64,000 bases of DNA from an uncultured archaeon (GCA_963734525.1 CAVTHI010000009.1:3429-67428), one strand, 5' to 3'. Positions 13,436 through 62,426 are shown, numbered from the stretch's first letter. Numbers and translations are program-made. Notes: generated by a model from the sequence alone, not told the origin.

Positions 13436-13975
13436 CTAGCTCGTGTCGCGCTCGGTCTGGCCCAGCCCGGGCACGGTCGGCGTGAGCGGCATCGCGCGGG
13501 CCGTGTCGTACAGCTCAGGCGGGCGCTTGTCGCGGGGAAGGCGGTTTTCGATGTGTTCCTTGACTTCGATCATGTCTTCGGAGCGCCTGGTCCCGTGGCC
13601 GGCACGGACTTCAGCAACGGCCAAACCTATTTCGGCCGGGTTCCCTGCGCCGCCAATCGCATCGCCAACTGCGGCGCCGCCTTCCGGGGATACGGGCTCG
13701 TTCGGGCGTGAACGGTGGTCGGTCTCGAATGAATCTATTCGTGGCAGAGCCGAGGCATAGGCGGTAGCGGCGGATTCCATCGTGCGCGCGGTGTCCGTGT
13801 CTCCCAGCGCCCTCGCCGCCTGTGCGGCTGTGGAATATTCCCTTATCGCGGCACCGACTTCTGCGCGGGCAGAACTGTAATCGCCCCGGGTGACTAGGTC
13901 TTCTACACGCTCCCTGCGGTTCAATTCGACGCTTTCAACCGATGTCGGGTTGTCCCGCTCCCTGGGCCGTATCAT
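13436..13975 (-). CDS. Hypothetical soluble protein, Ala/Gly/Thr/Arg-rich and Lys-poor
   Basis: 179-aa ORF with a natural-looking composition compared with the W/P/R/C-rich opposite-strand ORF. Overlaps the upstream gene by 41 nt. Confidence 0.5.
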   Translation of the reverse strand: MIRPRERDNPTSVESVELNRRERVEDLVTRGDYSSARAEVGAAIREYSTAAQAARALGDTDTARTMESAATAYASALPRIDSFETDHRSRPNEPVSPEGGAAVGDAIGGAGNPAEIGLAVAEVRAGHGTRRSEDMIEVKEHIENRLPRDKRPPELYDTARAMPLTPTVPGLGQTERDTS

Positions 13976-14849
13976 CTCTGCCCAGGAGTCTTGGAGGAAC
14001 TCCCGGGGGCGGCGCGGTGCGTGCGGGCAATTCTCCGAAAGATGTTGAAGCGATGGCAGAATGGTATGTCCCTGAATCGAGGCCGCGGGACGCCTGGCTG
14101 TATTCCGAATCCTGCAGCGCGCCTTCGGTACGGCGGGCGGTGTTTACCATGACGGCCGTGCTATAATCGAAGACGGCATTGTTCACCTGCTCGGCGGTCT
14201 GCGGGCTCGCGGTTTGGCTGACCCGGTAAAGCGTGTCGAGCGCGGCAAGCTCGCGCGCAGGCTGGGCGATGGAATCCGGTATCCGGAACCCGCCGATTGT
14301 CTGGGGTTGGGTGGCCAGCAATGCGCCGGTTCCATCCGGCTGCATCATGTGGCCCGCATTCGACAGATTAGCCAATGCCCCGAGGTCTGTCCCGGACACC
14401 CGGTCGACAAGCGTCCTTCCGCTTTGGTCGGCGTTTCCGGTGAATCCCTGCGTCCCCTGGAGGCGGCCCGTGAATTCCGTCGCGATTTCCCGTGCGCCGG
14501 TCGCTACTGCCGCGAAGGCCATCGCATCTGCCGCTGAAACGCCGGGATTATCCCTCTGGATGGCAGCTGCCAGGTTCGTCTGGTTTGTCGTTGTTATGTC
14601 GCCGACCGACATGCTCCCGAGGGTCCGGGACAGGGCTTGCCCGGCCTGGCCCACGCGGTCAGGGTCCACGCCTGCGGCAAGCGCAAGCGCTGTGGCGCCT
14701 TCCGGAGTGGCCAGTGATGTGAGGCTCGGAACGCCGACCCTTCTCGGCCCTGACGATTCGTCAGCCTCATGGACCGCTATCGCCACGGTTTCCGCCTGGC
14801 CGCGCTGGTGGCCCGGCAAATCGCTCGAACCGGTTGCAACGCCGGTCAT
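13935..14849 (-). CDS. Hypothetical soluble protein, Ala/Gly/Thr/Gln-rich
   Basis: 304 aa with no TM segment or signal peptide seen. Its start overlaps the stop of the upstream gene (ATGA at 14847-14851). Confidence 0.55.
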   Translation of the reverse strand: MTGVATGSSDLPGHQRGQAETVAIAVHEADESSGPRRVGVPSLTSLATPEGATALALAAGVDPDRVGQAGQALSRTLGSMSVGDITTTNQTNLAAAIQRDNPGVSAADAMAFAAVATGAREIATEFTGRLQGTQGFTGNADQSGRTLVDRVSGTDLGALANLSNAGHMMQPDGTGALLATQPQTIGGFRIPDSIAQPARELAALDTLYRVSQTASPQTAEQVNNAVFDYSTAVMVNTARRTEGALQDSEYSQASRGLDSGTYHSAIASTSFGELPARTAPPPGVPPRLLGRDDTAQGAGQPDIG

Positions 14850-16897
14850 CAGCTCCCCTGTCCCGCCATACCGAACATCCGAGGGGGGATGCCAAGGGTC
14901 GTTGCGACCGCTTCCGTGGCAGCATCATATCTCGCCTGCTGGACGGCATCCCGCGCATCCGGATTGCTGCCGAGCTGGGACGCGATTTCGCCTGACCGCC
15001 GTTCCATCTCGAATGCGGCATCCTGCCGGATAGTCTGCTGGAGAGCCTGGATTCCTTGGGTATGGGCGTTGAATGATTCCTGGAATGCGCCGGAGTTCAG
15101 GCCAGGCATCAGGCCGCCGGGGGAGTTGATTGCGGCTGCCATGGCGTAGTCCTGGAAATACATCGGCACTCCGGTCGAGGTCGGGGTTACCGTAGTGAAA
15201 GTCGGGGGGGCGCCCGGGGGGTCGGATGTCCCCCGCTGGTAGACATACGTGCCTCCGGCTTCGGCCGGCGGAAGTATCCTGACAAGCTCGTTATTGCCTT
15301 GCGCGACGCCGTCCCTCATGACCGGCTGGCCCTGCGCATCGCGTGTGGGCATGAATACCACCATATCCATCCGGACCACCTGGCTGTCGGAGGGGTTGGT
15401 GGTGTTGGTCATCACGATGGTCATCCTGCCGTCCGCGGTCTGGCCGCGTTCGGTCCCGGCCGGCACCGCCACGGTATATGCGGTAAGTGAGCGGGGGGGG
15501 TCGCCTTCAGTGACTGCTGCCGAGGCAAGCACCTCGACGCGGCGAGGCCCTGTGCCGGTATCGACTGTTATCATCATACCGCCATTCGGCCCCCGGAGAG
15601 CCGAAAGCGTAGCCGCGGCGTCGACAATGCGGGCGTTGCGGTCGGTAAACGCGCCTTCGAAGATGGAGCTGCCGCGCCCGGCCTGCGCGTTCCATGTCGA
15701 AGCCGAATAGCACGCGTCGATGGCCCTGCCGAGCGTCGTATTCATCACAACGAACAGCGCGATGCGGGCAATCGAGTTCAAGCCAATCGAGTTGCCGCCG
15801 AGTATGTCCCTGCCGCTGACGCTCTGCGAGCCGGTCAGCGTCGCCTGCGGGCCACCCGCAGTCTGCTGCAATGAGGCGCCTCCGCGCCCCGTGGAAGCCC
15901 CGGTACTGGTCCCCGTGCCCCCTCCGGCCGTCTTCGAGGTGGTTTCCGATGCGCGTCCGGCGCTGTAGCCGGCCAATCCGGTCTTGATGGCCATGAATGA
16001 GCCGCTCTTGCCCCCGCCCGCATCGTGCGACCAGACGCCGCCGACACCGCGGGCATTCGCCGCGTCCTTTTCCCTTTTCACGAGCGCGCCGCCGCCCTGC
16101 TTCGATGCGGTGGACGCGGCTTCGCCGACGCTCATGGCAGCCATGGCGAGCTGGGTGAAGCTGAACGAGAAGCCGCGGCCGCGCGCCTGGTAGCGTATGT
16201 GCTGGCCGGTGCGCATGCCGCCGATGTTGAACCCGGCGAACGGGTTCCTGCCGGTGAGGTATAGTGCGCCGGACAGGAGGGAGAATATGAGTATGAGCGG
16301 GAAGCAGAGCGCCGGGGTCGCCGCAAGCGGCGGGGGCGGCGGGCACCATGACGCGGTGCCGAGGCTAGGAAGGTATTTGACCGTGTTCAGGTCGGCCGGG
16401 ACGACCGCGTCCGTCGCGGTGGTGATGCCATCCGCATTGGTCGCGCTCGTGTCCAGGCGGCCGAATTCCACGCACTGCTTGAACCCCTCGCACTCGACTT
16501 CCGGGGGCACGCAGAACGGGCAGTAGAGGACCTTGAAGTTCAGGCATTCGTCATCATACGACGTGTAGCGGAATTTGGCCGTTCCGTTGTCGTCGGTGTA
16601 TGTCTTCTGGAGGACGTATGTGCCGGTGGGGCTCGTGAGCTCGACCAGGACGATGGTGTTCTTCAGCGGCTGCCTCGAAGGCGACGCGGATAGGTTCTCG
16701 TAGAACGCGACGATGTTCAGGTAGCGGTTGGACGAGTCGATGTCGTTGACGAGCACGAAGATTCCCGTGTTGGGCGCATTGATGAGCTCCTCGCACGTCG
16801 CGCATCCGGCCGGGTCGACCGCATGGAGGATGTAGGGTAAGGAGATTGCGAGCAGGACGGAAAATGTAAGCAGCAGCACGAGATTCGGAATGCGCAT
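14849..16897 (-). CDS. Type-I membrane protein: signal peptide, Cys-containing beta-rich ectodomain, one TM, large Gly/Ser/Thr/Ala-rich C-terminal region
   Basis: Start set at MRIPNLVLLLTFSVLLAISL (nt 16897). Ectodomain contains CATCEE..CPFCVPPEVECEGFKQC. TM is ALCFPLILIFSLLSGALYLTG. About 330 aa of low-Lys sequence follow. Confidence 0.65.
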   Translation of the reverse strand: MRIPNLVLLLTFSVLLAISLPYILHAVDPAGCATCEELINAPNTGIFVLVNDIDSSNRYLNIVAFYENLSASPSRQPLKNTIVLVELTSPTGTYVLQKTYTDDNGTAKFRYTSYDDECLNFKVLYCPFCVPPEVECEGFKQCVEFGRLDTSATNADGITTATDAVVPADLNTVKYLPSLGTASWCPPPPPLAATPALCFPLILIFSLLSGALYLTGRNPFAGFNIGGMRTGQHIRYQARGRGFSFSFTQLAMAAMSVGEAASTASKQGGGALVKREKDAANARGVGGVWSHDAGGGKSGSFMAIKTGLAGYSAGRASETTSKTAGGGTGTSTGASTGRGGASLQQTAGGPQATLTGSQSVSGRDILGGNSIGLNSIARIALFVVMNTTLGRAIDACYSASTWNAQAGRGSSIFEGAFTDRNARIVDAAATLSALRGPNGGMMITVDTGTGPRRVEVLASAAVTEGDPPRSLTAYTVAVPAGTERGQTADGRMTIVMTNTTNPSDSQVVRMDMVVFMPTRDAQGQPVMRDGVAQGNNELVRILPPAEAGGTYVYQRGTSDPPGAPPTFTTVTPTSTGVPMYFQDYAMAAAINSPGGLMPGLNSGAFQESFNAHTQGIQALQQTIRQDAAFEMERRSGEIASQLGSNPDARDAVQQARYDAATEAVATTLGIPPRMFGMAGQGS

Positions 16898-16916
16898 GTT
16901 AGATAGTAACTTTAGC

Positions 16917-16930
16917 AAATTTATAAATTT
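16917..16930. promoter_or_regulatory. Palindromic TATA-like box AAATTTATAAATTT, about 27 nt upstream of the minus-strand start at 16897
   Basis: Perfect 14-nt palindrome in the 103-nt divergent intergenic region. The spacing fits an archaeal leaderless promoter. Confidence 0.45.
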
Positions 16931-16971
16931 ACCCATTGGATGCGGATTTCGCTGGTGAAACCTCCATAAGC

Positions 16972-16979
16972 ATTTAAAT
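16972..16979. promoter_or_regulatory. Palindromic TATA-like box ATTTAAAT, about 26 nt upstream of ATG 17001
   Basis: AT-rich palindrome at the canonical archaeal TATA distance from the first paralog's start codon. Confidence 0.45.
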
Positions 16980-17000
16980 GGATAAGCAGGAAATCTACCC

Positions 17001-18176
17001 ATGCAGCCCTGGCGCGCCGTGCTAACTATACTATTAGTATCGTCCACGATATTCGCCGCCGGGACCGACCTTGCGCCCCTCGTCCCGGCCGTCGCCGCGG
17101 TCATGATAGTCGTCCTCGCGCTCACGAACATGCTCGCGGTCTCCATCTCGAATCCGCAGCTGGAGGCGTGGGCCAAGACCGAAATCAGGGAGTTCGTCGC
17201 CGGCGTCTTCCTGATCGGGATAATCATCGCGCTTTTCATCAGCTCGAACGGGGTATCCGTGGCGCTGACAGGCGAAGCGGATTACGTGCAGGCGGCGGGC
17301 GACATCATGGTCGGCTGGGTCGACAACTTGATGGCCGCGTACACCGACCTCGTGACCGCAGCGCAGAAAATCAGGATCGCGGCTTCGTACTCGTCCGGGA
17401 CGAACGTGGCCATATACTGGGTTTCGCTCACGTACCAGACATCGCCGCTGGGGGGCGCGGCCGTCTTCATGATGCCGCTCAGCCTCGCGACGCAGGGGCT
17501 CACCAACGCGATATTCCTCAGCGAGGGCATCCGCATGCTCCTCGTGTTCTTCAAGATAGTCACCCCGAAAATCCTCCTCCCGCTCTCGTTCAGCCTCAGG
17601 CTCATCCCGTTCACGAGAAAAACGGGCAACACGCTTATCGCGCTCTCGCTGGCCACGCTCGTCTTCCTGCCCGCGTCCGTCATTTTCGTCCAGGCCATAA
17701 ACAATGAAATCGTCGTCCCCCAGCCGAGGATTTCCGACATGGGGGCCCTCGATGCCGACCCGTACCCGGTCTATGCTTTCGGCGCAATCTGCGAGTCCAA
17801 GTTCTTCCGCATCCTCTTCGGACTCACCGACCCGCTCTTCGCGCTCATCACCTGCCTCCCGCTCGCGGTCATACCCGGCGCGTTCCCGGCATGCTACAGC
17901 CTCGTCTGGCAGGTGGTCTACCCGATAATGAGCATGATATTCCAGTACGCGAACCTCATCCTGCTCATCGTGTGGGAGGGTGTCGTCAACCCGGGCGAAT
18001 ACGGCGAGGACGTCTTCAACCAGCTCAGGCCGTTCCTGGCGGACGTGACGAACCTGGTCCTTGTAATATATATGGACGTAATCTTCATCGGAATCCTCAC
18101 GATATCCGGCGCGAGGAGCGTCGCGGCCGTGATAGGCGGCGAATGGTACATGGCGGGGGTGCAGAGGCTGCTATGA
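17001..18176 (+). CDS. Polytopic membrane protein, paralog 1 of 6 (unrecognised family)
   Basis: Signal-like N-terminus (..STIFAAG). Shared motifs NPQLEAWAKTEIREF and LLPLSFSLRLIPFTRKTGNTLIALS, with C-tail VIGGEWYMAGVQRLL. Confidence 0.75.
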   Translation: MQPWRAVLTILLVSSTIFAAGTDLAPLVPAVAAVMIVVLALTNMLAVSISNPQLEAWAKTEIREFVAGVFLIGIIIALFISSNGVSVALTGEADYVQAAGDIMVGWVDNLMAAYTDLVTAAQKIRIAASYSSGTNVAIYWVSLTYQTSPLGGAAVFMMPLSLATQGLTNAIFLSEGIRMLLVFFKIVTPKILLPLSFSLRLIPFTRKTGNTLIALSLATLVFLPASVIFVQAINNEIVVPQPRISDMGALDADPYPVYAFGAICESKFFRILFGLTDPLFALITCLPLAVIPGAFPACYSLVWQVVYPIMSMIFQYANLILLIVWEGVVNPGEYGEDVFNQLRPFLADVTNLVLVIYMDVIFIGILTISGARSVAAVIGGEWYMAGVQRLL

Positions 18177-19174
18177 AACTGCATTGCATCTTCCTGCTGC
18201 TGGCCGGGCTTTCGTTTTCCGCATGCATAGAGGACGCCACGCAGACCATACTATTCGAGCAGGGCACCGTCATCATGGCGGTCGTCGGGCTCATGATGGT
18301 GGTCATCGCGCTCGCGTACGCGCTCGGGAACGCGCTCCACCTCCCGAACGCCATCGTATTCGCAAAGGACGAGCTGTACCACCTGGGATTCTCGATGATG
18401 CTCCTCCTGGGTTTCAGCGGGATTGTGGTTTTCTCGTGCGACCTCACCGGGATGTTCTTCACCCAGACGATGGGCAACATCGGCACGGGCTCGTGCTATT
18501 CGGCAGGGAGCGGCACGTCGCCGAATGAGGTCGCGGAATGCTACGTCACGCAGGCGAAGAACGACGCCCGCAGCATGTCCGAGAGGTACATCCAGAAATA
18601 CCTGGACAACATGATGGATTCGACCTTCGCCTGGAGCCTCGCGCTCCCGCTTTTCGAGGCGTACACCGCCACGGCCGGCGCGTACAAGAGGATAGTGTCG
18701 AACCAGTACTCCATGATAATGAACTCGTTCCTGGTGCCGGCGCTCATGAGCATCAGCATGCAGAAGTTCGTCTTGATTTTCATAAACGAGAACGTCATCC
18801 GCTGGATACTGCCCACCGCGTTCGTGATGCGGTTCTTCCCGCCGACGCGCCACATGGGCAACATATTCATAGCCATCGCCATCGGGCTGTACGTCCTGGT
18901 GCCGATGCTCTATGCGTTCAACCTTTCCATGTACGAGGTGGTCCTGAGCGACTGCGGCGCGTTCGCCAGGGCGGCGTGCGACAACGTGATAGACAACAAC
19001 AGCTGCGGAACGGACGTGTCCTGCGCGGGATGCGAGACGACCTGCGGCAACGCAGACAGCCTCTGGAACGTCGCGAGGCTGATTCCGCAGGCGTTCTTCC
19101 TGCCGAACCTGACGATGGCGCTCGTGATAACGTTCCTGTCGTCGATACACAAGGCGCTGAGAGTGATAGGATGA
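18173..19174 (+). CDS. Polytopic membrane protein, paralog 2 of 6
   Basis: ATG overlaps the upstream stop (ATGA). Motifs LPNAIVFAKDELYHL and ILPTAFVMRFFPPTRHMGNIFIAIA. Carries a Cys-rich loop CGAFARAACDNVIDNNSCGTDVSCAGCETTCG. Confidence 0.75.
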   Translation: MKLHCIFLLLAGLSFSACIEDATQTILFEQGTVIMAVVGLMMVVIALAYALGNALHLPNAIVFAKDELYHLGFSMMLLLGFSGIVVFSCDLTGMFFTQTMGNIGTGSCYSAGSGTSPNEVAECYVTQAKNDARSMSERYIQKYLDNMMDSTFAWSLALPLFEAYTATAGAYKRIVSNQYSMIMNSFLVPALMSISMQKFVLIFINENVIRWILPTAFVMRFFPPTRHMGNIFIAIAIGLYVLVPMLYAFNLSMYEVVLSDCGAFARAACDNVIDNNSCGTDVSCAGCETTCGNADSLWNVARLIPQAFFLPNLTMALVITFLSSIHKALRVIG

Positions 19175-21267
19175 AGAAGATTGCATTCGTTTTCCTGCTG
19201 CTGGCGGCGGCCGCGTTCGCGGCGACCGAGTTCGAACAGTCGTTCGGCTCGCAGACCGGAAAAAGCGGCCTCCCGGAGATATTCAGGGACTGGCGCCTCC
19301 TCTCGGTCCTGGCCATACTCACATCCGTCATACTCATCGGCATAGGCTACGCGGTCGGAATCGGCCTCGAGATGCCTGAAATCAAGGCGTGGGCCAGCAA
19401 CGAGCTCGTGCAGGCGTTCGCGAACGTCCTGATAATCATCACGCTCATGGCCACGATAGCCCTCCTCGACCTGGTGGCCGAGGAGATGGTGCAGTACAGC
19501 GGCCTGGCGATACCCTGCACGGGCGGCCAGAGCTGCCTCGGGAACGTCTCGGTCGCATACCTGGATTCGTACATATCGGTGGCGAGCGACGACGCAAAAG
19601 CGGTTGCAATCAACAGCATAGACGCGGCCGGATGGGCCAACCGCAGGTTCGGGCTGTATTGCCTGACGATACTCTGCGCGCAGATCGGCACGTCGTTCTC
19701 GGTCGTGGGCCACTACATGCTCGACCAGGACAGGTACATGATAGTGTTCGAGTATTACGCCAACCTCATCGCCTCGCTCGAGGCCCAGAAGTTTTTCGTC
19801 ACGCACATCTCCTTCAACATCGGCCCGCTCCTGCTCGCCGCAGGGATAGTGGCGCGCACGTTCTTCTTCACACGGAAAATCGGCGGCCTCCTGATAGCGG
19901 TCGCCGCGGGCATAATGTTCTTCTTCCCCGGGATGTACGTGTTCGACTGGCTGACATTGAACACGGCGCTCACGGGGGACAAGGCGAACGAGGACGCGTC
20001 CAGCCCGCTCTGCCCGGAGGAATGCAAGTCCCCGCACGCGTGGGCGGTCATCGAGGACGGCTCCACCGAAGGCGTGAAGCTCGGCTCCATGAAAATGGTA
20101 TTCGACGCATTCCCCAATTCGCAGGCAGCGATAGCGACAGGCATCATCGACGGCTCGGTGGCCAATGCCGTGCCGAATGACGGCACTTACAATGGCATGA
20201 ACGTCATCTCGTGCATGGTGGTGTCCGACGCCGCCTGCCCGCTCTCGTGCAGGGAGCTCCCCTACCCGACATCGCTCACGCAGTGCGTGAACCTGTCGGC
20301 GAACGTCCCGCAGAACTGCGCGACGCTGCCCGACAAGTGCTGGGTGAGGCGCCTGGCAACGGTGACTGAACCGGACGCGGGGACGAAGCCGGTCCTTTCC
20401 ATGTGCCCCAGGGAATGCAAGGTCATCCCCCCGCTTCGCGGCAACTGCGACACGGGCGGCTGCCTCGCGTCCCGCACGGACTGCCGCGTTTACAAGAGAA
20501 TCGGCTATAGCGGGAACGATGCCACCGATTTCGAGTGGGCCCCGAACCCGCCTGAAGGCGTTGACGCGGACCAGCTGGCAAGGTGCGTTGCTGCGGCGGC
20601 GTGCCCGGTTTCAAACGACGCCTACCAGTCATGCTCATACGCCGTCCCGGAGACCGGCAACTGCGTCGAGCTGTGCACGGGCTGCCCTGAGATCTGCCGC
20701 GTGACGACCGACAATATAAACAACCTGCCTTCGCAGTGCATCAATTCAAGTTCGAACCAGCTCCAGATCCCGTGCCAGCAGTGCCCGGTCGGGTGCAAGG
20801 TCAACGCCACGTACATCGAGGAGCTGGACACGCCCGAGTGCTCGGGATGCCTCGCCGAGAGGAGGATAGTCACATACGGCGAGACGATGCCCGGGGATTA
20901 CCTCAACGGCTCATGCGACATCAACACGGACTGCAAGGCCGAGGACCGGGTCCCGATTCCGCGCAACTCGTGCGAGCAGTGCCTGTTCAGCGAGGAGAGC
21001 GAGATGTTCGAGCCGCCCATCCAGACGGCGTGCAACGACATGTGCAGGCCCACGGACGACGTGCCCGTCAAGGGCGCCGGGGCTTACACCGGCATCGGAG
21101 GCGAGGGGCTTGTCGGGCCGACAGAGGTCCAGAACGTCTCCAAGCTGATGCTTCCGGCCTACGTGCTTCCATTGTTCAATATCGCAGCGACCCTGATATT
21201 CATCAAGGGGCTCTCGACCATCCTGGGCGGGGACATAGACATCCCGGGCATATCAAAGGTGTTCTGA
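19171..21267 (+). CDS. Polytopic membrane protein, paralog 3 of 6, with a ~350-aa Cys-rich extracytoplasmic insertion
   Basis: ATGA overlap with paralog 2. Signal peptide MKKIAFVFLLLAAAAFAA. Motifs MPEIKAWASNELVQAF and LLAAGIVARTFFFTRKIGGLLIAVA, with tail ILGGDIDIPGISKVF. Confidence 0.8.
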   Translation: MKKIAFVFLLLAAAAFAATEFEQSFGSQTGKSGLPEIFRDWRLLSVLAILTSVILIGIGYAVGIGLEMPEIKAWASNELVQAFANVLIIITLMATIALLDLVAEEMVQYSGLAIPCTGGQSCLGNVSVAYLDSYISVASDDAKAVAINSIDAAGWANRRFGLYCLTILCAQIGTSFSVVGHYMLDQDRYMIVFEYYANLIASLEAQKFFVTHISFNIGPLLLAAGIVARTFFFTRKIGGLLIAVAAGIMFFFPGMYVFDWLTLNTALTGDKANEDASSPLCPEECKSPHAWAVIEDGSTEGVKLGSMKMVFDAFPNSQAAIATGIIDGSVANAVPNDGTYNGMNVISCMVVSDAACPLSCRELPYPTSLTQCVNLSANVPQNCATLPDKCWVRRLATVTEPDAGTKPVLSMCPRECKVIPPLRGNCDTGGCLASRTDCRVYKRIGYSGNDATDFEWAPNPPEGVDADQLARCVAAAACPVSNDAYQSCSYAVPETGNCVELCTGCPEICRVTTDNINNLPSQCINSSSNQLQIPCQQCPVGCKVNATYIEELDTPECSGCLAERRIVTYGETMPGDYLNGSCDINTDCKAEDRVPIPRNSCEQCLFSEESEMFEPPIQTACNDMCRPTDDVPVKGAGAYTGIGGEGLVGPTEVQNVSKLMLPAYVLPLFNIAATLIFIKGLSTILGGDIDIPGISKVF

Positions 21268-22250
21268 TGGGAAAACTCACGATTGTCTTCCTGATTGCGC
21301 TCATGCCAGCCGCATTCGCAGCCGGGGGCTGGGAAGGGACCGCGGCCATGGCCATCGCGATATCGGGGGGGTTCCTCGGAATCGCCTTCATGGTGGGGAT
21401 GGGCTTCGGCATCAACGAGCTCCAGATAATGTCCAAGGACGAGTTCTACCAGCTGATTGCGACGGGCCTGCTCGTCGCCCTCCTGGTAGGCGGCAACAAT
21501 GTCATCGACGGCCTGTCCGCCGGCCTGGGTTCCGGGGGCCAGAACCTGCAGGACACTGGGATAGCCATCATAGACGACACCCTGACGAACCCGGGATACG
21601 GCCTGTTGGGCATATACAATTCGGTCACGACGATGGACAACCAGGTGGCGAAGGAAAGCTCTAAGACGATGTCCTGCAGCATAGTCAGCATCGGATACAC
21701 CGTGAGCGCCTGCGGGGGCTATTCCATGCTCAGCACCCCGCTCTCGATGTCCGGAAGCATAGTCGGCTTCGCGATCGGCGAGCTGTTTTCCATGAAAAGG
21801 CTCATCAACATCTCCAAGAACTACGCGATGAGCCTCCTCCTGCCGATAGGAATCGTTCTTCGGACGTTCAAGTTCACGAGGGGGGCCGGAGGGTTCCTCA
21901 TCGCGACCGCGATATCGATGCACATACTGATACCGGCGGGCATCCTGTTCAACCAGATGCTTGTCGACACGTTCATAGCGGAGGCCGGGGCCGGATACAA
22001 CGGCGGGCTGAGCACTTCGGTCTCGGAATGCGACCCTGACGCCGGCATAGGCGTCTATGGCGGCGACACGGGCGCCCAGGACACGCTGGCCACGTTCCGC
22101 ACGGACCTGCAGCAGGTCGTCTTCAGCGTCCTGGTGCGGGGCACGCTCGGGCCCGTGCTCGCGCTCCTCATCATGACGGCAGGAATACGGGCACTGACAT
22201 CGCTCGGCGGCGCGGAAGTCGACGTAAGCGCGCTAGGGAGGTTCGTCTGA
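21267..22250 (+). CDS. Polytopic membrane protein, paralog 4 of 6
   Basis: TGATG junction. Signal peptide ..MPAAFAAG. Motifs INELQIMSKDEFYQL and LLPIGIVLRTFKFTRGAGGFLIATA, with tail SLGGAEVDVSALGRFV. Confidence 0.75.
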   Translation: MGKLTIVFLIALMPAAFAAGGWEGTAAMAIAISGGFLGIAFMVGMGFGINELQIMSKDEFYQLIATGLLVALLVGGNNVIDGLSAGLGSGGQNLQDTGIAIIDDTLTNPGYGLLGIYNSVTTMDNQVAKESSKTMSCSIVSIGYTVSACGGYSMLSTPLSMSGSIVGFAIGELFSMKRLINISKNYAMSLLLPIGIVLRTFKFTRGAGGFLIATAISMHILIPAGILFNQMLVDTFIAEAGAGYNGGLSTSVSECDPDAGIGVYGGDTGAQDTLATFRTDLQQVVFSVLVRGTLGPVLALLIMTAGIRALTSLGGAEVDVSALGRFV

Positions 22251-23281
22251 TGGTCGACACGTGCGCAATCTCCGGGTTCGACGGCATAATGGAGAACACG
22301 ATAATGCCGCTTTCGGCCATGGCCACGATTGCGAGCGCGCTGATTTGCGGCTTCACCTACATGATAAGCCAGGTGACGACGAATCCCAAGCTCAGCCTGT
22401 GGGCGAAGACCGAGGCGGTCCAGCTCATATTCTCGGCGGGCTCGGTCTTCCTTCTCATCATGCTCATGAACACCTTCTGCTCCATGAAGGTGAGCGAGGT
22501 CGCGACGCTGTTCGGGAAAAGCTCCGACTCCATATCGGTCTACGACGCGGCCGCGAAATACCTGACCGATGCCGGGCAGTATTCCATCCGCGCGCTCACG
22601 GTCGTGAGGTTCCACCTCGAGGCGTACAGCGTGCTCGGCGCGCTCAGCGTGTTCCAGTGCGAGTTCCTCGGCGGCATCGGGTGCATGTTCGGTTACTCGG
22701 GCACCAACATCCAGGCGCTGGGGGGCTACGGCGCGCACCAGGCGGCGCTCGGCATATTCTTCAATTCCGCCATCATGTCCGTCATGTCGGCCCTTAATTT
22801 CCTGTTCATACTGCAGTACGTATACCGCGGGTTCGTGGTGATGTTCCTGCCGCTAGGCATCTTCATGCGCTCGATGCCGTACATGCGCACGTTCGGAGCG
22901 CTCCTGATTTCCGTGTCGATTTCGTTCCTGACCGTCTATCCGTTCCTCCTTTCGGTGTTCTACATCATGGAGGACGCCATCCTCGACAAGCCCAGCTACG
23001 AGCCGGGCAGTTTCAGCGACTATTACGACGAGACGATATACAGCGAGGGCGGGGCGGGCGAGAGCCTGGAGGCGGCGGTCGCGGGAACGAGCGAGGTATA
23101 CGACAATTATTTCCCCAACGGGGACAATGCGGCCGGCGCAATCATGTTCGCCGCATACGCGTTCATAGCGGCGGTGTTCTTCCCCACGGCCGCGCTTCTC
23201 GGGACCATCGGGACGATTGCGTACCTGACGAGGATGTACGGGGAAGAGATAGACCTCAGCAGGATACTCCAGATGGTATAG
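22250..23281 (+). CDS. Polytopic membrane protein, paralog 5 of 6
   Basis: TGATG junction. Motifs NPKLSLWAKTEAVQL and FLPLGIFMRSMPYMRTFGALLISVS, with tail MYGEEIDLSRILQMV. Confidence 0.75.
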   Translation: MVDTCAISGFDGIMENTIMPLSAMATIASALICGFTYMISQVTTNPKLSLWAKTEAVQLIFSAGSVFLLIMLMNTFCSMKVSEVATLFGKSSDSISVYDAAAKYLTDAGQYSIRALTVVRFHLEAYSVLGALSVFQCEFLGGIGCMFGYSGTNIQALGGYGAHQAALGIFFNSAIMSVMSALNFLFILQYVYRGFVVMFLPLGIFMRSMPYMRTFGALLISVSISFLTVYPFLLSVFYIMEDAILDKPSYEPGSFSDYYDETIYSEGGAGESLEAAVAGTSEVYDNYFPNGDNAAGAIMFAAYAFIAAVFFPTAALLGTIGTIAYLTRMYGEEIDLSRILQMV

Positions 23282-23287
23282 AATGGT

Positions 23288-24343
23288 GTGCATATGATGG
23301 ATATATGGCCTGTGTTCGCGTTCAGCGACCTGACAATCAAGGGCGGCATCACATGGATGAACAGCTGGTTCCCCCTTTCGATTGCAGCGGTCTTCGTGTC
23401 GCTCGTCATCCACACCGCGTTCCTCATGATAGCCAGGGCGTTCTCGATAAAGGAGTTCGAGAATTACGCCATGAGCGAGATTCTCCAGGGCGTCGCCGGG
23501 GCGGTCATGATCGGCTCCCTCATCGTCATGATCAACAGCACGCTCGACATAACGCACAGCTTCATCGCCGGCGACCTGATATGCAACAGCAAGGCAATCC
23601 ACATCGGCACCACGAACCAGAGCACGATGGACGAGGCGTTCGACGCGATAAGGTGCAGGCTGCAGGAGAAGGCGAGGACGATTGCGGGCATCCAGAGCAC
23701 AATCAACACCGAAGCCGAGACCGTCAATTATTTCAACATCATGAACCTGCAGGCGAGCATACTCGGCATCACGTTCCTCAAGGGCGACTGGATAAGCGAC
23801 GTCTACCGGAGCACCGAGACGAAAAGGATAACGAACAACCTCGCCACGGTGATATTGATAGGCCTGAACGCGCAGTCGGCCCTCCTGATGTACATCAAGG
23901 CTAACGCCCTCACGATGTTCATCCCGTTCGGCATCCTGCTGCGCAGCTTCTATTTCAGCCGCGGCGCGGGGGCGCTGTTCCTGTCTATGGGCGTGGCCAT
24001 GTATTTCATATTCCCGATGTTCTACGTCCTCCTCGACCCGAATTTCATACCGGCCCCGCCGATGGATGCGGACCAGGGGCAGGCGACGATATCCCAGCCC
24101 TACTGCTATGCGACGATGTCGAGCACGGTCTCGGTCATCCAGACGCTCCAGGCCGGGGGCATGGGAACGACGAGGATACTGGCGCAGGAGAACATACGCG
24201 ACGAGCTCTCGAAATCGTACATCGAGCTGATGCTCCACCCGCTGGTCGCATTCTTCCTGACGATGGTTTTCGTAAGGTACATGATGACGGTGCTGGGCTC
24301 GGACGCGTTCGAAGTCGTAAGGATGGTCGGCAAAGTGGTTTGA
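23288..24343 (+). CDS. Polytopic membrane protein, paralog 6 of 6
   Basis: 6-nt gap after paralog 5 (GTG 23288, or ATG 23294). Motifs IKEFENYAMSEILQG and FIPFGILLRSFYFSRGAGALFLSMG, with tail VLGSDAFEVVRMVGKVV. Confidence 0.75.
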   Translation: MHMMDIWPVFAFSDLTIKGGITWMNSWFPLSIAAVFVSLVIHTAFLMIARAFSIKEFENYAMSEILQGVAGAVMIGSLIVMINSTLDITHSFIAGDLICNSKAIHIGTTNQSTMDEAFDAIRCRLQEKARTIAGIQSTINTEAETVNYFNIMNLQASILGITFLKGDWISDVYRSTETKRITNNLATVILIGLNAQSALLMYIKANALTMFIPFGILLRSFYFSRGAGALFLSMGVAMYFIFPMFYVLLDPNFIPAPPMDADQGQATISQPYCYATMSSTVSVIQTLQAGGMGTTRILAQENIRDELSKSYIELMLHPLVAFFLTMVFVRYMMTVLGSDAFEVVRMVGKVV

Positions 24344-27300
24344 ATGGACAGGAAGCACTTGGCGGTTCTGGTAGTATTGGCGTTGTTCTTCTCGGGGTGC
24401 CTCCAGTCCCCGGCAAAGCTGGGCTGCTGCCTCAAGCAGAACGCGACCGACCGCGAGGGGTGCGTCCTCTACAATGACAGCGCCGACACCATCACCGACC
24501 TCACCGACAGGACCTACAACGAGGCCGACGGGCAGAAATGCAACGTCACGGCAAGCTACTGCAACGTCTCATACGCCGATGGGGTCCAGGGCTACCTCAT
24601 CCCAGTCTGCACGGAATCCGACATCCTTTCCTGCAGGCAGCCCGACTGCGTGGCCATGGTCTGCGGGGACTTCAAGTTCAAGCCGCCGATTGCGCCGGGG
24701 CTCTCAAGCGACGGCGAGCAGGTGAAGACCGACATCCCGGCCGACTCCCAGGAGGAGGCGGCGATGCAGTTCTTCCACGCGCAATGCCGCTTCCTGGCCA
24801 TGGACGGCAACCTCAAGAAGGTGATGAAAAGCTCGAAGTCCACATTGAACGTGTTCCGCGTGGGCGTGGGCATGTCGTTCGACGAATACGAGCAGTACCG
24901 CTACCTGTTCCCCATGTCGGACAAGTTCTGCACAATCAACCCGCCCAGGGAAGGGCAGCTCCGCGTGGACCGGTACATGAACTACCTGAACCCCACCGCG
25001 ATGACGGCCTGGGACCCCGTAGAGGGCATCACGACGAACTGCATGGTCGACAGCGAGGGCGCGCTTCCGCCGTTCAACAGGGACGAAAGCCTCAGGGCAT
25101 CGCCGACCAACGGCACTTTGGTCCAGTCCTATTACTCCGCGTCGTTCTCATATCCGAAGATAACGCCCGACAAGAGCAGCTACCAGTTCGCCCACTGGGG
25201 CAGGCTGGATTATGACAGCATCGACTACGGGTTCGGGTACCACACCGGCGCGGCGTTCTTCTCGACGTTCAGCATCTACAAGAAAATCGACAACGAATAC
25301 TACAAGAAATGGCTCTCGATAGCGCATGCGGCGACGATTTACGGCAAGAGCGGCTCGCTCGTCAACACGACGAGGGCCCCCTTCGAATGCGACATCGCGA
25401 GCACCGACTGCTACTCGGGAATCTGCACCACGACGACGTACAACCGCGTGGTCATGCTTACGCCCCCTGATGCGAGCGGAATCTCCCAGGAAATAGTGAC
25501 CGACTGCGAAAGCTACACCGACGAGAACTTCAAGACGCGCATCGTCTGCTACCCGACCACGGACGTCCAGATAACCGGCCCGAGCTCGCAGCCCTCAAGG
25601 ACGTTCGCCCAGGTGGACGCGAGGCTCGCGCATGTCGAGGGCGACGGCGCGCTCCGGTATTATAACGCCAACAGGACGGCCTGCGGCATCTTCGACGAGA
25701 AGCAGCTGGAGCGCTTCGTCGACTGGGAATACGCCGGCGGGGGATGGGGATACGGCGGCAACTGGGCGGACAAGTCGTGCACGAACATCATGGACAGCAG
25801 CTTCATGCAGTACGCCCAGCTCCTCGAAAGCGTGGGCAAGATAACCTACACCACCAACTCGTACATGACATGGTACAATTACACCGACGGCACCTGGCAT
25901 TCGGCGTTCAGCCAGTCCGACAAGGGCCCGCCGGCAGGAGGCGCGGTGTTCTTCGGAAAGACCGACCCGCAGACGGAATATGACGGGAAAACCGTGATAG
26001 GATACGCGCTCGTCAGCAACGGGCAGGCGGATGACCTGCTCGTCGTCAAGAACTGCGGCATGGTCGAGGGCGAGGATTACGATTACGTCCAGGTCCCCTC
26101 AAACCCCAAGGACTGGGGGGCGCTCAAGAACGCATTCCTCGGATACTTCAAGCTGAGGTACCAGGGCATGAAGGCGATAAGCACCGAGGACAGCTGCGGG
26201 GCGACCGCCTGCACCCTTTACGAGGATGCGCCGACCAAGGCATGCTCGTACTTCTACGACTTCTTCTTCGCCGGCCTTCCATGGGTCATAAACATGGAGA
26301 AGAACGTGCACCCCAGCGAAGGCTCGCTTTACAGCGGCGTCATCATGAACAACGAGATGCAGCAGGCCATGACGAAGGTGAACCGCTTCAGCGAGGAGCA
26401 GGTCGGCAGCAACATGGGGACGACGTGCGCGCTCCGCGGGCTGAACGCGGGCTACATATTCAACCCCTCGAGGGAGGCCGACGACACGAACTACTACGTA
26501 TGGAACGAGTACTACCAGCCGGTGTACAACCTCCTGTTCAGCGAATACATCGTGCTTTTCTACGACAAGGGGAACCAGAAGATAGGCAACTGCGCGCTCG
26601 ACAAGACGACGCTCATGCCGAAAATCAAGACGTTCGGCTGGTGCGAGCCCTGCACCACCTCCACGCTGGCCTACCAGTACGTCAGCACCAGCGCGGGCGG
26701 GACGTACATGCCCGGAGGCATCGCGAACATGGAGAACGGCGGCACCGTGGACATGTCGGCCACGCAGTCCCAGGTCTGCAAGACCAGCTACGACGAGCTC
26801 CGCTGCGGCAACAACCTGATATCGGACGCCAACGATTTCAGCCTCGAGAACGGGGACCTCTCCGGCGGCCCGCAGACGTATCCCGAAGCGTCCGTCCTCA
26901 AGGAGAGGCTCGGCAACTACATGAAATCCGGCGTCATGCCGATACTCGACATGAGCAGCCCCAGCAACTGGGAGGAGAACCCGGACGGGAACCTCGACGA
27001 GTACGACTTCCAGCGGCTCATAGGCAAGATGGGCGCGGTCATCGTCATCGTCGACAAGGTGGGAAGCTCCGACAACGCGAGCCAGAAGGCCCAGAACATA
27101 TCCACGAGGACCGCGCTCCTCCGCAGCAGGTGCTACGGGTGCCTGACGGCGTTCCACGTCTCATCGCCTTCGAGCAACGAGAGCCTCAGGGAGAGGGCGC
27201 ACGAGATATTCTCCAACAACATCGGGAACAAGTTCACGGTGGACATGGTGACTTACGATTATCCGGTGTCTGACCACAGCGGCATGCTTCCGGCGATGGG

Positions 27301-28282
27301 CGCGGACATCCTCGCCATCGACCCCGGGGCCAACCTCACGGTGAACTACAGCCAGATAATCGCCGAAGATATCGCGAGCTATTCGCAGGCCGTCCTCGAA
27401 ACCGACAACAAGCCCACCGTCCTGGTAGGGCTCTCGCTTGACAACAGCGACCCGGTATTCAACACCAAGGAGAAGCAGACCGCGCTTTTCGGGACTCTCT
27501 TCAGGAACCAGGACATGTTCATCAAGGCCGGGCTGATCGGCATAATCTACGGGCCGGCCAGGCAGGTGCGCATAGGGGACATCTACGTGGGCCCCGAGAC
27601 CGGCATCTTGGATGTCGACGCGAACAACACCGGCACCAAGAACACGAAATTCTGCGCATTGCAGCAGGCCATGCAGATGATGACCTCGGCGCCGCCCATA
27701 GGCGTCTTCGCGATGAAGAACGCGGCCAATTACAGCGAGTGCATTCCCTGCGAGAGCCTGGAAAAGACGCAGGGCGAGTGCACGGCCGACGCCCTGATGT
27801 GCGACAACGGCGTCAGGTGCACCCCGCCATTAGGGCTGGATTACTCTGACATAGAAGGGAATTTCAGGTGCCAGGCGGAGACGGTCATAGACATTCCGGA
27901 AGGTTCGGACGATGAAAGGTGCAAGCTGTGCAAGGACATCCCCGGCACGTATTCGTGCACTTTCTCGTATTCGAACGGCACCATCACGACGCAGGAAGGC
28001 AATATGACCGACCTCGCGTCAGACCTCTACCTGGACATAATCGCGGGAATCGGGCGTACGGACAAATGCTGCCTCGAGGACTCGTACGGAAGGCGCTACA
28101 CGTACATGAAGAAGACCTCCGATACGTCCGTGAACAGGCCCCTCGCATTCTCGAAGACCGGGGACAAGGAGGCCGACTGCGGGCTGAGCACGAGCATCGA
28201 GGCCATCAAGGAGGCGCAATCCTTCTGCGACGTCAAGATTCCCGTGAAGGATTACGACGTCACGTGCACGCTGAGTGGTTGA
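24344..28282 (+). CDS. Giant (1,312 aa) secreted, lipoprotein-like Cys-rich protein, unknown function
   Basis: ATG directly follows the paralog 6 stop. N-terminus MDRKHLAVLVVLALFFSGC is lipobox-like. Many Cys residues and many N-x-S/T sequons. No C-terminal TM. No domain recognised by eye. Confidence 0.8.
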   Translation: MDRKHLAVLVVLALFFSGCLQSPAKLGCCLKQNATDREGCVLYNDSADTITDLTDRTYNEADGQKCNVTASYCNVSYADGVQGYLIPVCTESDILSCRQPDCVAMVCGDFKFKPPIAPGLSSDGEQVKTDIPADSQEEAAMQFFHAQCRFLAMDGNLKKVMKSSKSTLNVFRVGVGMSFDEYEQYRYLFPMSDKFCTINPPREGQLRVDRYMNYLNPTAMTAWDPVEGITTNCMVDSEGALPPFNRDESLRASPTNGTLVQSYYSASFSYPKITPDKSSYQFAHWGRLDYDSIDYGFGYHTGAAFFSTFSIYKKIDNEYYKKWLSIAHAATIYGKSGSLVNTTRAPFECDIASTDCYSGICTTTTYNRVVMLTPPDASGISQEIVTDCESYTDENFKTRIVCYPTTDVQITGPSSQPSRTFAQVDARLAHVEGDGALRYYNANRTACGIFDEKQLERFVDWEYAGGGWGYGGNWADKSCTNIMDSSFMQYAQLLESVGKITYTTNSYMTWYNYTDGTWHSAFSQSDKGPPAGGAVFFGKTDPQTEYDGKTVIGYALVSNGQADDLLVVKNCGMVEGEDYDYVQVPSNPKDWGALKNAFLGYFKLRYQGMKAISTEDSCGATACTLYEDAPTKACSYFYDFFFAGLPWVINMEKNVHPSEGSLYSGVIMNNEMQQAMTKVNRFSEEQVGSNMGTTCALRGLNAGYIFNPSREADDTNYYVWNEYYQPVYNLLFSEYIVLFYDKGNQKIGNCALDKTTLMPKIKTFGWCEPCTTSTLAYQYVSTSAGGTYMPGGIANMENGGTVDMSATQSQVCKTSYDELRCGNNLISDANDFSLENGDLSGGPQTYPEASVLKERLGNYMKSGVMPILDMSSPSNWEENPDGNLDEYDFQRLIGKMGAVIVIVDKVGSSDNASQKAQNISTRTALLRSRCYGCLTAFHVSSPSSNESLRERAHEIFSNNIGNKFTVDMVTYDYPVSDHSGMLPAMGADILAIDPGANLTVNYSQIIAEDIASYSQAVLETDNKPTVLVGLSLDNSDPVFNTKEKQTALFGTLFRNQDMFIKAGLIGIIYGPARQVRIGDIYVGPETGILDVDANNTGTKNTKFCALQQAMQMMTSAPPIGVFAMKNAANYSECIPCESLEKTQGECTADALMCDNGVRCTPPLGLDYSDIEGNFRCQAETVIDIPEGSDDERCKLCKDIPGTYSCTFSYSNGTITTQEGNMTDLASDLYLDIIAGIGRTDKCCLEDSYGRRYTYMKKTSDTSVNRPLAFSKTGDKEADCGLSTSIEAIKEAQSFCDVKIPVKDYDVTCTLSG

Positions 28283-28283: not shown

Positions 28284-28625
28284 ATGGGGCTGAAAGACCT
28301 TCTTGGCGGCATGCTGAAAGGCCCCCCAGCCTCATCGGACCGCAAGGGCCAGGTGCAGGCATGCCCGAACTGCGGCGAGAGGGTCAGCCTGAGCATGGAA
28401 AGGTGCCCCAAATGCGGCGTACGGGTAAAGAGCATGTTCAGGCGCAAATGCCCCAAATGCCAGAACCTTGTCGAATTGGACGCGAAAAAATGCTCGAAAT
28501 GCGGCTACAGCTTCGAAGCCGAATTAGAAAGGGCTAATAAAACTTTTTATGTATGCCCTATATGCGGGTATAAGATGGAAGCCCTGCTCACGCAGTGCCC
28601 CGCATGCAACACCAAATTCGTGTGA
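28284..28625 (+). CDS. Triple zinc-ribbon protein
   Basis: Three CxxC...CxxC pairs (CPNCG..CPKCG; CPKCQ..CSKCG; CPICG..CPACN). Starts 2 nt after the giant gene's stop. Confidence 0.7.
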   Translation: MGLKDLLGGMLKGPPASSDRKGQVQACPNCGERVSLSMERCPKCGVRVKSMFRRKCPKCQNLVELDAKKCSKCGYSFEAELERANKTFYVCPICGYKMEALLTQCPACNTKFV

Positions 28626-28630
28626 ATGGA

Positions 28631-29198
28631 ATGGTTGAATCCTTCAAGCAGACGGAGAAGAAGCAGGATGTGGAAGCCCCGAAAAAGAAGTTCGTCCACC
28701 TCCTTGACGAGGAAGAGGTAGAGGTAAAAAGGCTGGGCTCCGACGACATCGAGGACTGCGTGAAGGTCATGAGGAAATGCGCCTTCGACGTCACGGAAGT
28801 CGAGGTGGGCAACATCATCGCCTACGGGAAAAGCTTCGGGGCGACCGTGAACCGGATGCTCGTCGGCGTCGGGCTCGCGTGGCCCGCGAAACTCGACATG
28901 GATAAGCAAGAAGATTACGAGCGGGGAGCCGAACGCCCTGTATATGGAGGACCCGGCCGTGCTCCTTGCCTACGAGGGCAGGGGCGTGCGGAGGATACTC
29001 CTCGGCGAGAGGGAAAAGGAGACCATCGATTCCAAGCTCAAGTACTCGATAGGATACCTTTACGAGGACATCCCCTCAGGCGACATCGCCAGCTACATCA
29101 CGGAAGCCGGCAGCACGCTGGAAAAGCTGTACCTTTCCGAGAATTACGAGTTCTTCAGGACCGAGAAGGGGATACTGGCGTTCAAGAAAGTGGGTTGA
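28631..29198 (+). pseudogene. GNAT-family N-acetyltransferase interrupted by one frameshift near 28,900-28,915 (or a consensus error)
   Basis: The N-part (MVESFKQ...VGVGLAWPAKLDMDKQE) continues in another frame as ..ITSGEPNALYMEDPAVLLAYEGRGVRRILL (GNAT motif A) ...LEKLYLSENYEF. Confidence 0.6.
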
Positions 29199-29245
29199 GC
29201 ATTCTTCCGCATGCGCCAGATGCGCGTCCGGCCATCTCTTCATCT

Positions 29246-30004
29246 TCAGGATGACAGCTTCAGCATCACTTCCGGGAAGCCGAACGACCCCATCTTCTTC
29301 CGGATTGCGCATATGTGCCTGGCGATGGCGACCATGCCCCTCTTTCCGACGCTTATGCAGGCTATGCCGCCTTTCAGCTGGAGCCTTGCGGACGGGACGA
29401 TGGAAGAGAGGTATTTTTTTGCTTCCGCGGGCTTCTTCCCGGCCTTCGGCGCCTTCGCCTTGGACTCGGACGATGCGGGCTTGTCCCAGTTGGGGAGCTT
29501 GAATTCCTTGGCGAGGAGGCGGATTTCGGCCTTCGACAGGTTGCTCTCGAGGAGAGGGCTCTTCACGCCGCAGTGGCGCGCGTTGATGAACGACTGCCCT
29601 TTCTCCGAGGCGTCGTCCAGATGCGAGCCGTCGAGGACGTGCTTTATCTTCATCCTCATGGCGACGCCCTTCATCGTGCTGTAAACGTTGCCCCCGCGGG
29701 CGGCGGCCCTTGCGGTGTGCAGGACCGCGCTTTGCCGCCCGGAATCCAGGACGACATGCTTCACGCCGATGATTTTCGCGACCCTCCGGGCCACGCTGAG
29801 CTCGGAGCGGGGGTAGCTTTCGGACAGGGCGGTGACTGCCACCGCCTTCTCGCCCAGCTCCTCGCGGCATATCCGCATGAGGAACGAGCTGTCCACCCCG
29901 CCGGAGAATGCGACGACAGCGCTGTCGAGCTTCCTTATCCTCTCACGCAGGCTTGACAGTTTCTTCTCGAGGCGCTTGTCCATGACTGTTATTCTGGAGC
30001 TCAT
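29246..30004 (-). CDS. PP-loop ATP pyrophosphatase (LarE / TIGR00268-like adenine nucleotide alpha hydrolase)
   Basis: VVAFSGGVDSSFL PP-loop motif near the N-terminus; 252 aa. Confidence 0.65.
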   Translation of the reverse strand: MSSRITVMDKRLEKKLSSLRERIRKLDSAVVAFSGGVDSSFLMRICREELGEKAVAVTALSESYPRSELSVARRVAKIIGVKHVVLDSGRQSAVLHTARAAARGGNVYSTMKGVAMRMKIKHVLDGSHLDDASEKGQSFINARHCGVKSPLLESNLSKAEIRLLAKEFKLPNWDKPASSESKAKAPKAGKKPAEAKKYLSSIVPSARLQLKGGIACISVGKRGMVAIARHICAIRKKMGSFGFPEVMLKLSS

Positions 30005-62404: not shown

Positions 62405-62426
62405 GAACGTCGGTGGAATAGCATAC

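Follow-up and report, generated by a model that had tools for sequence, protein, structure and literature searches.

Do six consecutive genes for membrane proteins of no recognized family, lined up head to tail in an archaeal genome, encode the parts of one structure? This question is raised by positions 17001 to 24343 of a stretch of 64,000 nucleotides (nt) of DNA from an uncultured archaeon (GCA_963734525.1 CAVTHI010000009.1:3429-67428; this whole stretch is referred to as the window). A first interpretation made from the DNA alone, referred to here as the sequence-only reading, had described six tandem, translationally coupled genes for related polytopic membrane proteins and had proposed that their products form a hetero-oligomeric envelope complex, perhaps for host contact. 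We therefore asked whether the six genes, designated p1 to p6, are related to one another and to any known family, whether they are inherited as a set, and which neighboring genes belong with them. We put the chances at about even that the six paralogs, together with a large Cys-rich predicted lipoprotein encoded by the following gene (designated G), co-assemble as a hetero-oligomeric envelope complex that would be, in function, a stalk or platform of the VirB6 type.

Six coupled paralogous genes

All six genes are located on the plus strand. The first, p1 (17001-18176), encodes a protein of 391 amino acids (aa) with a signal peptide and seven predicted transmembrane (TM) helices, i.e., a core of five TM helices and two extra ones between TM4 and TM5. 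An ATGA overlap joins p1 to p2 (18173-19174; 333 aa), the product of which has a signal peptide, five TM helices and 11 Cys and ends in a short, conserved ...ALRVIG, and a second ATGA overlap joins p2 to p3 (19171-21267; 698 aa), which carries an ectodomain of approx. 400 aa with 32 Cys between TM4 and TM5. TGATG overlaps connect p3 to p4 (21267-22250; 327 aa), the minimal paralog with five TM helices and the most central member of the family, and p4 to p5 (22250-23281; 343 aa), a paralog without a signal peptide. The last gene, p6 (23288-24343; 351 aa), also specifies a protein without a signal peptide and starts with GTG 6 nt past the stop codon of p5. The open reading frames (ORFs), their sizes (327-698 aa) and the five junctions were all as the sequence-only reading had given them. 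In addition, p6 and G meet in a TGAATG without a gap (G starts at 24344), so that seven genes are coupled. GC content at third codon positions (GC3) of 0.70 to 0.88 identifies the frames of p1 to p6 and G as coding; the many long antisense ORFs are by-products of this GC3 bias.

The six genes are paralogs, far beyond chance. Phmmer connected all six proteins and did so even when E-values were calculated for a database size of 1e6 sequences, and hhalign related every pair of the six orthologous-group profiles (38 orthologs per paralog) at 93.6-99.7% probability (E = 2e-7 to 1.7e-25). Across the 228 sequences of the pooled alignment, E59, R199, R205, G208 and P223 (p4 numbering) are invariant, while L192, P193, I212, A213, P296 and G315 are conserved in >80% of the sequences. 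The three motifs that had been noticed as common to the paralogs were borne out as significant by these five invariant residues and by the profile probabilities. Motif (i), A-K-x-E ahead of TM2, includes the invariant Glu, and motif (ii), L-P-x-G-x-x-x-R-x-x-x-x-T-R-x-x-G-x-x-L-I-A, includes the two invariant Arg and the invariant Gly, with the invariant Pro following 15 residues further on. Motif (iii), a C-terminal tail of the form G-(G)-E/D-x-D...V, is retained in five of the six groups, as originally described; the orthologs of p2 conserve a short end of their own, ...ALRVIG. Signal peptides of the AFA/A type had been assigned to paralogs 1, 3 and 4 and are present in these, but p2 has one too (SFSAC in the window, AFAAS/C in the group consensus), so that such signal-peptide-like N-termini are conserved in groups 1 to 4 and missing from groups 5 and 6.

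Distribution and conservation of the array

Related loci were collected with two p1-specific peptides as queries from a set of genomes in which each GTDB species is represented once. The resulting 43 loci were labelled Micrarchaeota/Micrarchaeia or plain "archaeon", except for one "Candidatus ainarchaeum". The named homologs of the six proteins likewise came from metagenome-assembled genomes (MAGs) of Candidatus Micrarchaeota or Micrarchaeia, the closest being 90-97% identical, with a short "Nitrososphaera sp." contig and one "Candidatus ainarchaeum" record as the exceptions; the sources named include Bilamarchaeum, a member of the class Micrarchaeia. Orthologs of p1 are 41-97% identical in Micrarchaeota. 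By the naming of its homologs, the window thus belongs to Micrarchaeota (DPANN), which agrees with the small-genome archaeon that the sequence-only reading had supposed. The family has so far been seen only in Micrarchaeota; with p1 as the only query, the survey does not properly sample the taxonomic range outside this group.

Exactly six members in the same order were found in every locus with enough sequence (n = 38; a hidden Markov model of the family was run over all ORFs of the loci), and their sizes follow one pattern, i.e., about 400, 335, 700, 330, 355 and 345 aa. Junctions of -4, -1 or 0 nt predominate at all six junctions from p1 to G across 37-38 loci, and the junction between p6 and G measures -1, 0 or +1 nt in 35 of 37 loci. 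A homolog of G is located downstream of p6 in 40 loci, and a homolog of U, a gene for a large single-pass membrane protein that lies divergently upstream of p1 (13436-16897 on the minus strand of the window), was also found in 40 loci, where it measures 900-1,566 aa and has the corresponding divergent position. The synteny of the six-gene array with the giant gene behind it, which had been proposed as a check, is conserved in every locus that is long enough.

The recognized neighbors around the arrays are U, G, PadR, AAA_18 and ScpB. Next to U are ScpB and an AAA_18 kinase in 28-29 loci; as these are housekeeping neighbors, the array is chromosomal and vertically inherited, and not a mobile element. 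The complete unit of U, the six genes and G is present twice in two MAGs (L008/L045 in JAKEGJ01 and L018/L031 in JBNLBN01), and in each of these just one copy adjoins ScpB and AAA_18. The same layout is retained in a distant lineage (L003) and in a variant array (L049), in which the members are much enlarged (519, 326, 1,555, 769, 752 and 382 aa) and are followed by two giant genes. The paralogs are ancient, with a divergence that predates the separation of the sampled Micrarchaeota lineages. Among 1.84 billion representative proteins, 3,139 clusters (50% identity) were assigned to the family at E<=1e-3 and 2,611 at E<=1e-10; some 3,100 clusters are roughly what would be expected for six genes in a few hundred species-level lineages.

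Pairwise distances of p1 to p6 and G correlated with r = 0.76-0.93 (23 shared loci), as compared to r = 0.50-0.73 against ScpB and AAA_18. Partial correlations among p1 to p6 and G ranged from r = 0.53 to 0.86, with the highest value for p6 and G, and were lower for U (0.35-0.49). These mirror-tree correlations provide supportive but weak evidence for co-evolution within one assembly.

Predicted topology and structure

Hydropathy, charge and signal peptides predict one order for p2 to p6. From an N-terminus on the outside, TM1 leads into a short inner loop with A-K-x-E and TM2 into an outer loop of 80-125 residues; TM3 is followed by a short inner loop rich in Lys and Arg (R-x-x-P-F-T-R-x-x-G), TM4 by an outer loop that varies, and TM5 by the C-tail on the inside. 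The predicted topology is thus one of five membrane helices with the N-terminus outside and the C-terminus inside. The outer loops of the six paralogs are acidic and Cys-rich. The predicted orientation fits because the accessory domains of relatives are all extracellular immunoglobulin (Ig)-like domains, placed at the N-terminus or in outer loops. The family members with such extra domains (P0184, P0159, P0158 and P0077) bear CARDB, CHB_HEX_C_1 and DUF1573/Big repeats. The insert of p3, G and the ectodomain of U are mutually unrelated (hhalign probability <2%).

In the predicted topology, the five invariant residues are located at the cytoplasmic ends of TM2, TM3 and TM4 or inside TM4. Mean pairwise identity within each group was best in the three predicted cytoplasmic elements (55-81%) and lowest in the outer loops (29-50%). 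AlphaFold models of p1 (pLDDT 82.1, pTM 0.69) and p4 (pLDDT 86.5, pTM 0.78) contain helices that are 36-51 residues long, and the loop between TM2 and TM3 is tipped by a beta-hairpin; the membrane helices of these models therefore reach well past the bilayer.

Comparison with known families

The six proteins had nothing above threshold in Pfam or NCBIfam, and scans of 87-139 relatives against the same databases gave no confident family. Platform proteins of the FlaJ/TadC/PilC kind (Pfam T2SSF) were not matched in either scan, and ABC and other permease families appeared only as scattered single sub-threshold matches (NirC, KefC, BCCT, MerT), each in one or two members. A search of PDB sequences with the family profile found nothing at E<=10, VirB6 proteins included. 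Foldseek comparisons of the p1 and p4 models with the PDB yielded no match at E<=0.001, a negative result softened by the weakness of Foldseek on long helical membrane proteins; the best matches were TTYH1-3, fumarase-type lyases, BAR domains and designed helical bundles, with TM-scores mostly <0.3. Overall, Pfam, NCBIfam, the PDB profile search, hhalign against VirB6 (see below) and Foldseek gave no confident placement, in line with the failure of the sequence-only reading to recognize a family. Two outcomes had been named beforehand as speaking against that reading, i.e., placement in a known family and motifs without statistical significance, and neither was found. A search of the accessible literature found no description of this six-paralog cluster. 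As the family is absent from Pfam and NCBIfam and its predicted fold has no match in the PDB, we regard it as undescribed.

We also considered whether the family is a far-diverged offshoot of the VirB6/CedA/TedA superfamily, with the module representing a chromosomal, domesticated apparatus of the type IV secretion or Ced kind through which DNA or proteins would pass between the Micrarchaeon and other cells and which would draw on a VirB4-like ATPase encoded elsewhere in the genome. We regard this as rather unlikely. The NCBIfam families with the lowest E-values were indeed the archaeal VirB6 homologs CedA and CedE, and CedA was also the most frequent. CedA was matched by 7 of the 139 family members (best E = 7.9e-5) and CedE by 2 of 139 (best E = 3.4e-5); p5 of the window matched CedA with residues 166-246 (E = 1.3e-4), and the group-4 consensus matched CedA (E = 0.0015) and CedE (E = 0.016) over the same segment, with the alignments of p5 and of the consensus being roughly in register on TM3, loop and TM4. 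However, the scores shown for CedA and CedE (NF041796 and NF053657) were 15.0-21.7 bits, as compared to curated cut-offs of 330 and 400, and CedA and CedE are paralogs of each other and hence not independent evidence. WCOR413, an unrelated plant cold-acclimation membrane family in Pfam, was weakly matched by 11 of the 139 members (best E = 9.8e-5). As these matches are comparable in strength, recurrent sub-threshold matches to CedA and CedE can be spurious.

Direct homology to VirB6 was rejected, as the tests for it gave no signal. The Pfam family TrbL/VirB6 (PF04610), which was present in 118 of 120 listed Agrobacterium-type VirB6 homologs used as a positive control, was not matched by the six proteins at E<=1 or by the 139 members at E<=0.1. 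The six group profiles and the pooled profile were compared by hhalign (local, greedy and global modes) to a 116-sequence alignment of homologs of pTiC58 virB6, which covers the Agrobacterium-like branch of mating-pair formation type T (MPF-T) only, and reached probabilities of 0.1-3.9%, no better than a reversed control. VirB6 structures (TrwI, PDB 7o3v and related entries) were outside the 50 best Foldseek matches of either model. No VirB4/CedB-type ATPase was found within 10 kb of the array in the 43 loci and no pilin gene was recognized there, the latter without a dedicated search for small ORFs, and the group-4 consensus had no tblastn match among 72,556 plasmids.

The likeness to VirB6 is thus one of layout. 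VirB6/TrbL proteins (TrwI of R388, Agrobacterium VirB6) are polytopic, measure about 300 aa and have the same hydropathy layout (a TM1-TM2 hairpin, an outer loop of 75-125 aa, TM3, a short Arg-containing loop, TM4 and TM5), a feature that is not family-specific. According to Jakubowski et al. (2004), VirB6 reportedly has its N-terminus outside and its C-terminus inside. The TM1-TM2 hairpin of the all-family consensus weakly matched a VirB2-like conjugal pilin family (E = 0.017), which is suggestive because a VirB2-like N-terminus has been reported for VirB6/CedA (PMC9905601). Moreover, the long helices of VirB6 rise from the membrane into a stalk on which VirB5 is mounted (PMC9259494), and long helices are predicted here too. 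On the other hand, VirB6 is a homo-pentamer made from one gene, whereas six fixed paralogs are found here; no sequence, profile or fold similarity was detected; and the present array is a core chromosomal locus, not a mobile element, and has no VirB4, VirB2, VirB5 or VirB8 genes nearby.

Two other systems invite the same comparison. CedA, CedE and TedA of the Ced/Ted DNA exchange systems in Thermoproteota are likewise polytopic membrane proteins of archaea, CedE with five TM helices, and Sulfolobales retain paralogous CedA and CedE, which act together (PMC11868833). Those loci, however, include a HerA/VirB4-type ATPase and a VirB2-like pilin, neither of which was found here, and Ced genes are confined to Thermoproteota, whereas the present family has been seen only in Micrarchaeota. 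Tandem RvhB6 proteins of Rickettsiales, to which the sequence-only reading had pointed, are four or five polytopic paralogs whose hydrophilic extensions are large and variable, and they too occur in organisms that depend on hosts and have small genomes (PMC2653234, PMC7648143), but the RvhB6 proteins are recognizable TrbL/VirB6 proteins within the gene set of the rvh type IV secretion system (T4SS), and the parallel is one of gene organization only. Chromosomal T4SS genes have also been reported as essential for epibiotic growth of a bacterium of the candidate phyla radiation (CPR) (PMC12102498). VirB6 had been offered as an analogy only, and as an analogy it stands; the weak CedA/CedE matches leave a very distant homology possible. 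That a sensitive profile or structure comparison will eventually link the family to the VirB6/CedA superfamily seems to us rather doubtful. If this link were true, the family would be a striking new variant, with six fixed paralogs encoded in the chromosome without the usual T4SS partners.

Putative partner genes G and U

The gene behind the array, G (24344-28282, plus strand), begins right after the stop codon of p6 and encodes a predicted lipoprotein of 1,312 aa with 47 Cys. It has a lipobox (FSGC in the window, with [AS]-G-C conserved), after which comes an invariant GCC motif, and it lacks a C-terminal anchor. Homologs of G measure 1,200-1,450 aa and contain 36-54 Cys, approx. 24 of which are invariant. 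No match to G was found in Pfam, NCBIfam or the PDB, and Pfam was also negative for two orthologs. The known surface layer (S-layer) protein of Micrarchaeota, SLP_Mh, contains PF05123 and is almost free of sulfur-containing residues (bioRxiv 10.1101/2021.04.28.441871); we rejected an identity of G with this protein, as G has 47 Cys and no match to PF05123 or any other Pfam family.

These properties of G bear on a second explanation, according to which the module is a structural pedestal of the envelope, with the six proteins anchoring or building a surface layer, G serving as a sub-S-layer or envelope protein, and no conduit. G is as conserved as the membrane subunits and, with its invariant Cys, suits a structural protein better than a variable adhesin. 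The module is also a core chromosomal locus conserved over the sampled lineages of the phylum, the long outward helices of the models resemble stalk-type anchors, and a separate membrane stalk protein has been proposed for S-layer anchoring in Micrarchaeota (bioRxiv 10.1101/2021.04.28.441871). A passive anchor, however, leaves unexplained why the invariant residues and the best-conserved segments are located at the cytoplasmic face and why six distinct subunits are retained, and G differs from the known S-layer protein as described above. We consider this explanation improbable.

The product of U is ordered as a signal peptide, a Cys-containing ectodomain of approx. 170 aa with C-x-x-C-E, a PPPPP stretch and one TM helix, past which a strongly conserved, predicted cytoplasmic motif (GRNPFAGFNIGGxRxGxHIRYQARGRGFS) is followed by a long, poorly conserved low-complexity/coiled-coil region. 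U forms one continuous ORF of about 900-1,570 aa in the related loci that contain the gene in full, whereas the window copy is spread over three frames (14849-16897, 13935-14849 and 13436-13975; the first two ORFs overlap by 1 nt), and tblastn against an intact ortholog (L006) located two frame changes, with homology continuous over both breaks. The split could reflect two frameshift errors, a pseudogene or a real fission. The divergent gene in the distant lineage L003 encodes a 359-aa protein with only the signal peptide, the ectodomain and a C-terminal TM helix. A role of U as an ATPase was rejected, as there is no conserved Walker A motif and the PDB profile search yielded a weak coiled-coil match only; besides this one, U had no Pfam, NCBIfam or PDB sequence matches.

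U and p1 are separated by a divergent intergenic region of approx. 100 nt (16898-17000) with AT-rich, TATA-like boxes. A TATA-like TTTAAAT is located at 16973-16979, approx. 25 nt ahead of the ATG of p1, and TTTATAAA is located at about 16920-16930, approx. 25 nt ahead of the ATG of U on the minus strand. The spacing of these putative promoters suggests two leaderless transcripts, one for p1 and one for U.

The first 100 aa or so of a window ORF at 28595-29254 (plus strand) match a soluble protein of approx. 190 aa that is encoded beside the array in two distant lineages (L003:6427-6996, minus strand; L047:5524-6117, plus strand), at differing positions relative to the array. The rest of the ORF is Arg-rich and unlike the homologs, which suggests a frameshift. 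This protein may be a ninth, loosely linked component of the module.

A proposed envelope assembly

It appears very improbable that the six proteins act singly or as alternative subunits, for example as permeases for particular substrates, as proteins that handle lipids or as surface variants exchanged from host to host. In favor of this, the outer loops are strongly different from paralog to paralog, relatives add differing Ig-like domains and DPANN archaea must get lipids from their hosts. Interchangeable variants, however, would be expected to vary in number and order, while six one-to-one groups in fixed order with overlapping codons were found in 38 loci, and no transporter family was matched. 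The weak top Foldseek matches, the TTYH proteins, are lipid-associated and share with the present family five membrane helices, an outer N-terminus, an inner C-terminus and an extracellular domain made of helix extensions and a beta-hairpin. With TM-scores of 0.14-0.20 (E = 0.02-0.6), these are no fold match, however, and TTYH proteins are eukaryotic and without sequence relation to the family; we treat the resemblance as chance or convergence.

We interpret the six proteins and G as one hetero-oligomeric assembly because there are six fixed one-to-one groups, coupling is near-universal, the whole unit has been duplicated and evolutionary rates are correlated. In the mechanism that we propose, a single leaderless transcript with translational coupling would supply p1 to p6 in near-equal amounts, and the six subunits would form a ring or bundle in the cytoplasmic membrane, plausibly with one copy of each. 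TM2, TM3, TM4 and TM5 would run on for 15-25 residues past the membrane and, with the beta-hairpin tip, form an extracellular helical stalk. The variable outer loops of the paralogs would display Cys-rich or Ig-like domains on this stalk, which would also hold the lipoprotein G and probably the ectodomain of U. At the cytoplasmic face, the invariant Glu, the two Arg and the Gly, together with the C-tail, may represent a joint between subunits, a gate or a site at which a cytoplasmic partner docks, and the basic, Arg-rich juxtamembrane motif of U is a candidate partner of the acidic G-G-E-x-D tails. In function, we liken the assembly to the VirB6 stalk base of a T4SS, in that it would carry an extracellular structure and pass something across the envelope, and this transfer would take place where the surface of the host-dependent archaeon meets its host.

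Several points weigh against such an assembly. VirB6 assemblies are five-fold as a rule, not six-fold (PMC9259494), and no ATPase or other energy source was found in or near the module. The orientation is based on hydropathy, charge and domain logic, and the mirror-tree signal could be due to rate variation common to envelope proteins or to the noise of short controls. The analysis shows that the six proteins are paralogs, that the array is conserved, syntenic and coupled, and that known relatives are lacking; the co-assembly of the six proteins, their topology, their partners and their role, including host contact, are what we infer. A more specific form of the proposal is put forward tentatively, as less likely than not: U, the six proteins and G may constitute an envelope nanomachine specific to Micrarchaeota, i.e., a pseudo-symmetric hetero-hexameric membrane ring with a new fold, the extracellular stalk of which would form, together with the giant Cys-rich lipoprotein, an uptake organelle for host lipids, metabolites or nucleic acids. 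It would be unrelated, or only anciently related, to T4SSs.

Other features of the window

A gene at 36614-37909 (minus strand) encodes a 431-aa ATPase of the HerA/FtsK superfamily, with best matches to HerA and weaker ones to CedD; the adjoining ORFs had no family match and no NurA was recognized. We considered this ATPase as a partner of the array and rejected it, as it is a generic HerA located 8 kb off and is not syntenic in the other loci. The product of 30162-31928 (plus strand; 588 aa) matches only the C-terminal proteolytic domain of Lon protease (residues approx. 30-190), with no AAA+ domain detected and no match for the other approx. 400 aa. Rfam found two tRNA genes that ARAGORN missed and that presumably contain introns (11914-12047, minus strand, 134 nt; 46949-47139, plus strand, 191 nt), and a gene for tRNA-intron endonuclease is located at 39807-40313. 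The signal recognition particle (SRP) RNA at 62425-62680 (plus strand) obtained its top score with the bacterial large SRP model despite the archaeal genome.

Significance for Micrarchaeota

Micrarchaeota and other DPANN archaea have tiny genomes, do not make many of their building blocks themselves and live attached to host archaea, and their modes of attachment and uptake are still an open question. With eight genes and approx. 15 kb of a roughly 1-Mb genome, the module described here is a concrete candidate for the missing envelope machinery. Its membrane protein family of some 3,100 clusters represents a gap in Pfam and NCBIfam, and, if the proposed assembly is true, it would provide a rare prokaryotic case of a membrane assembly built from six fixed paralogs.

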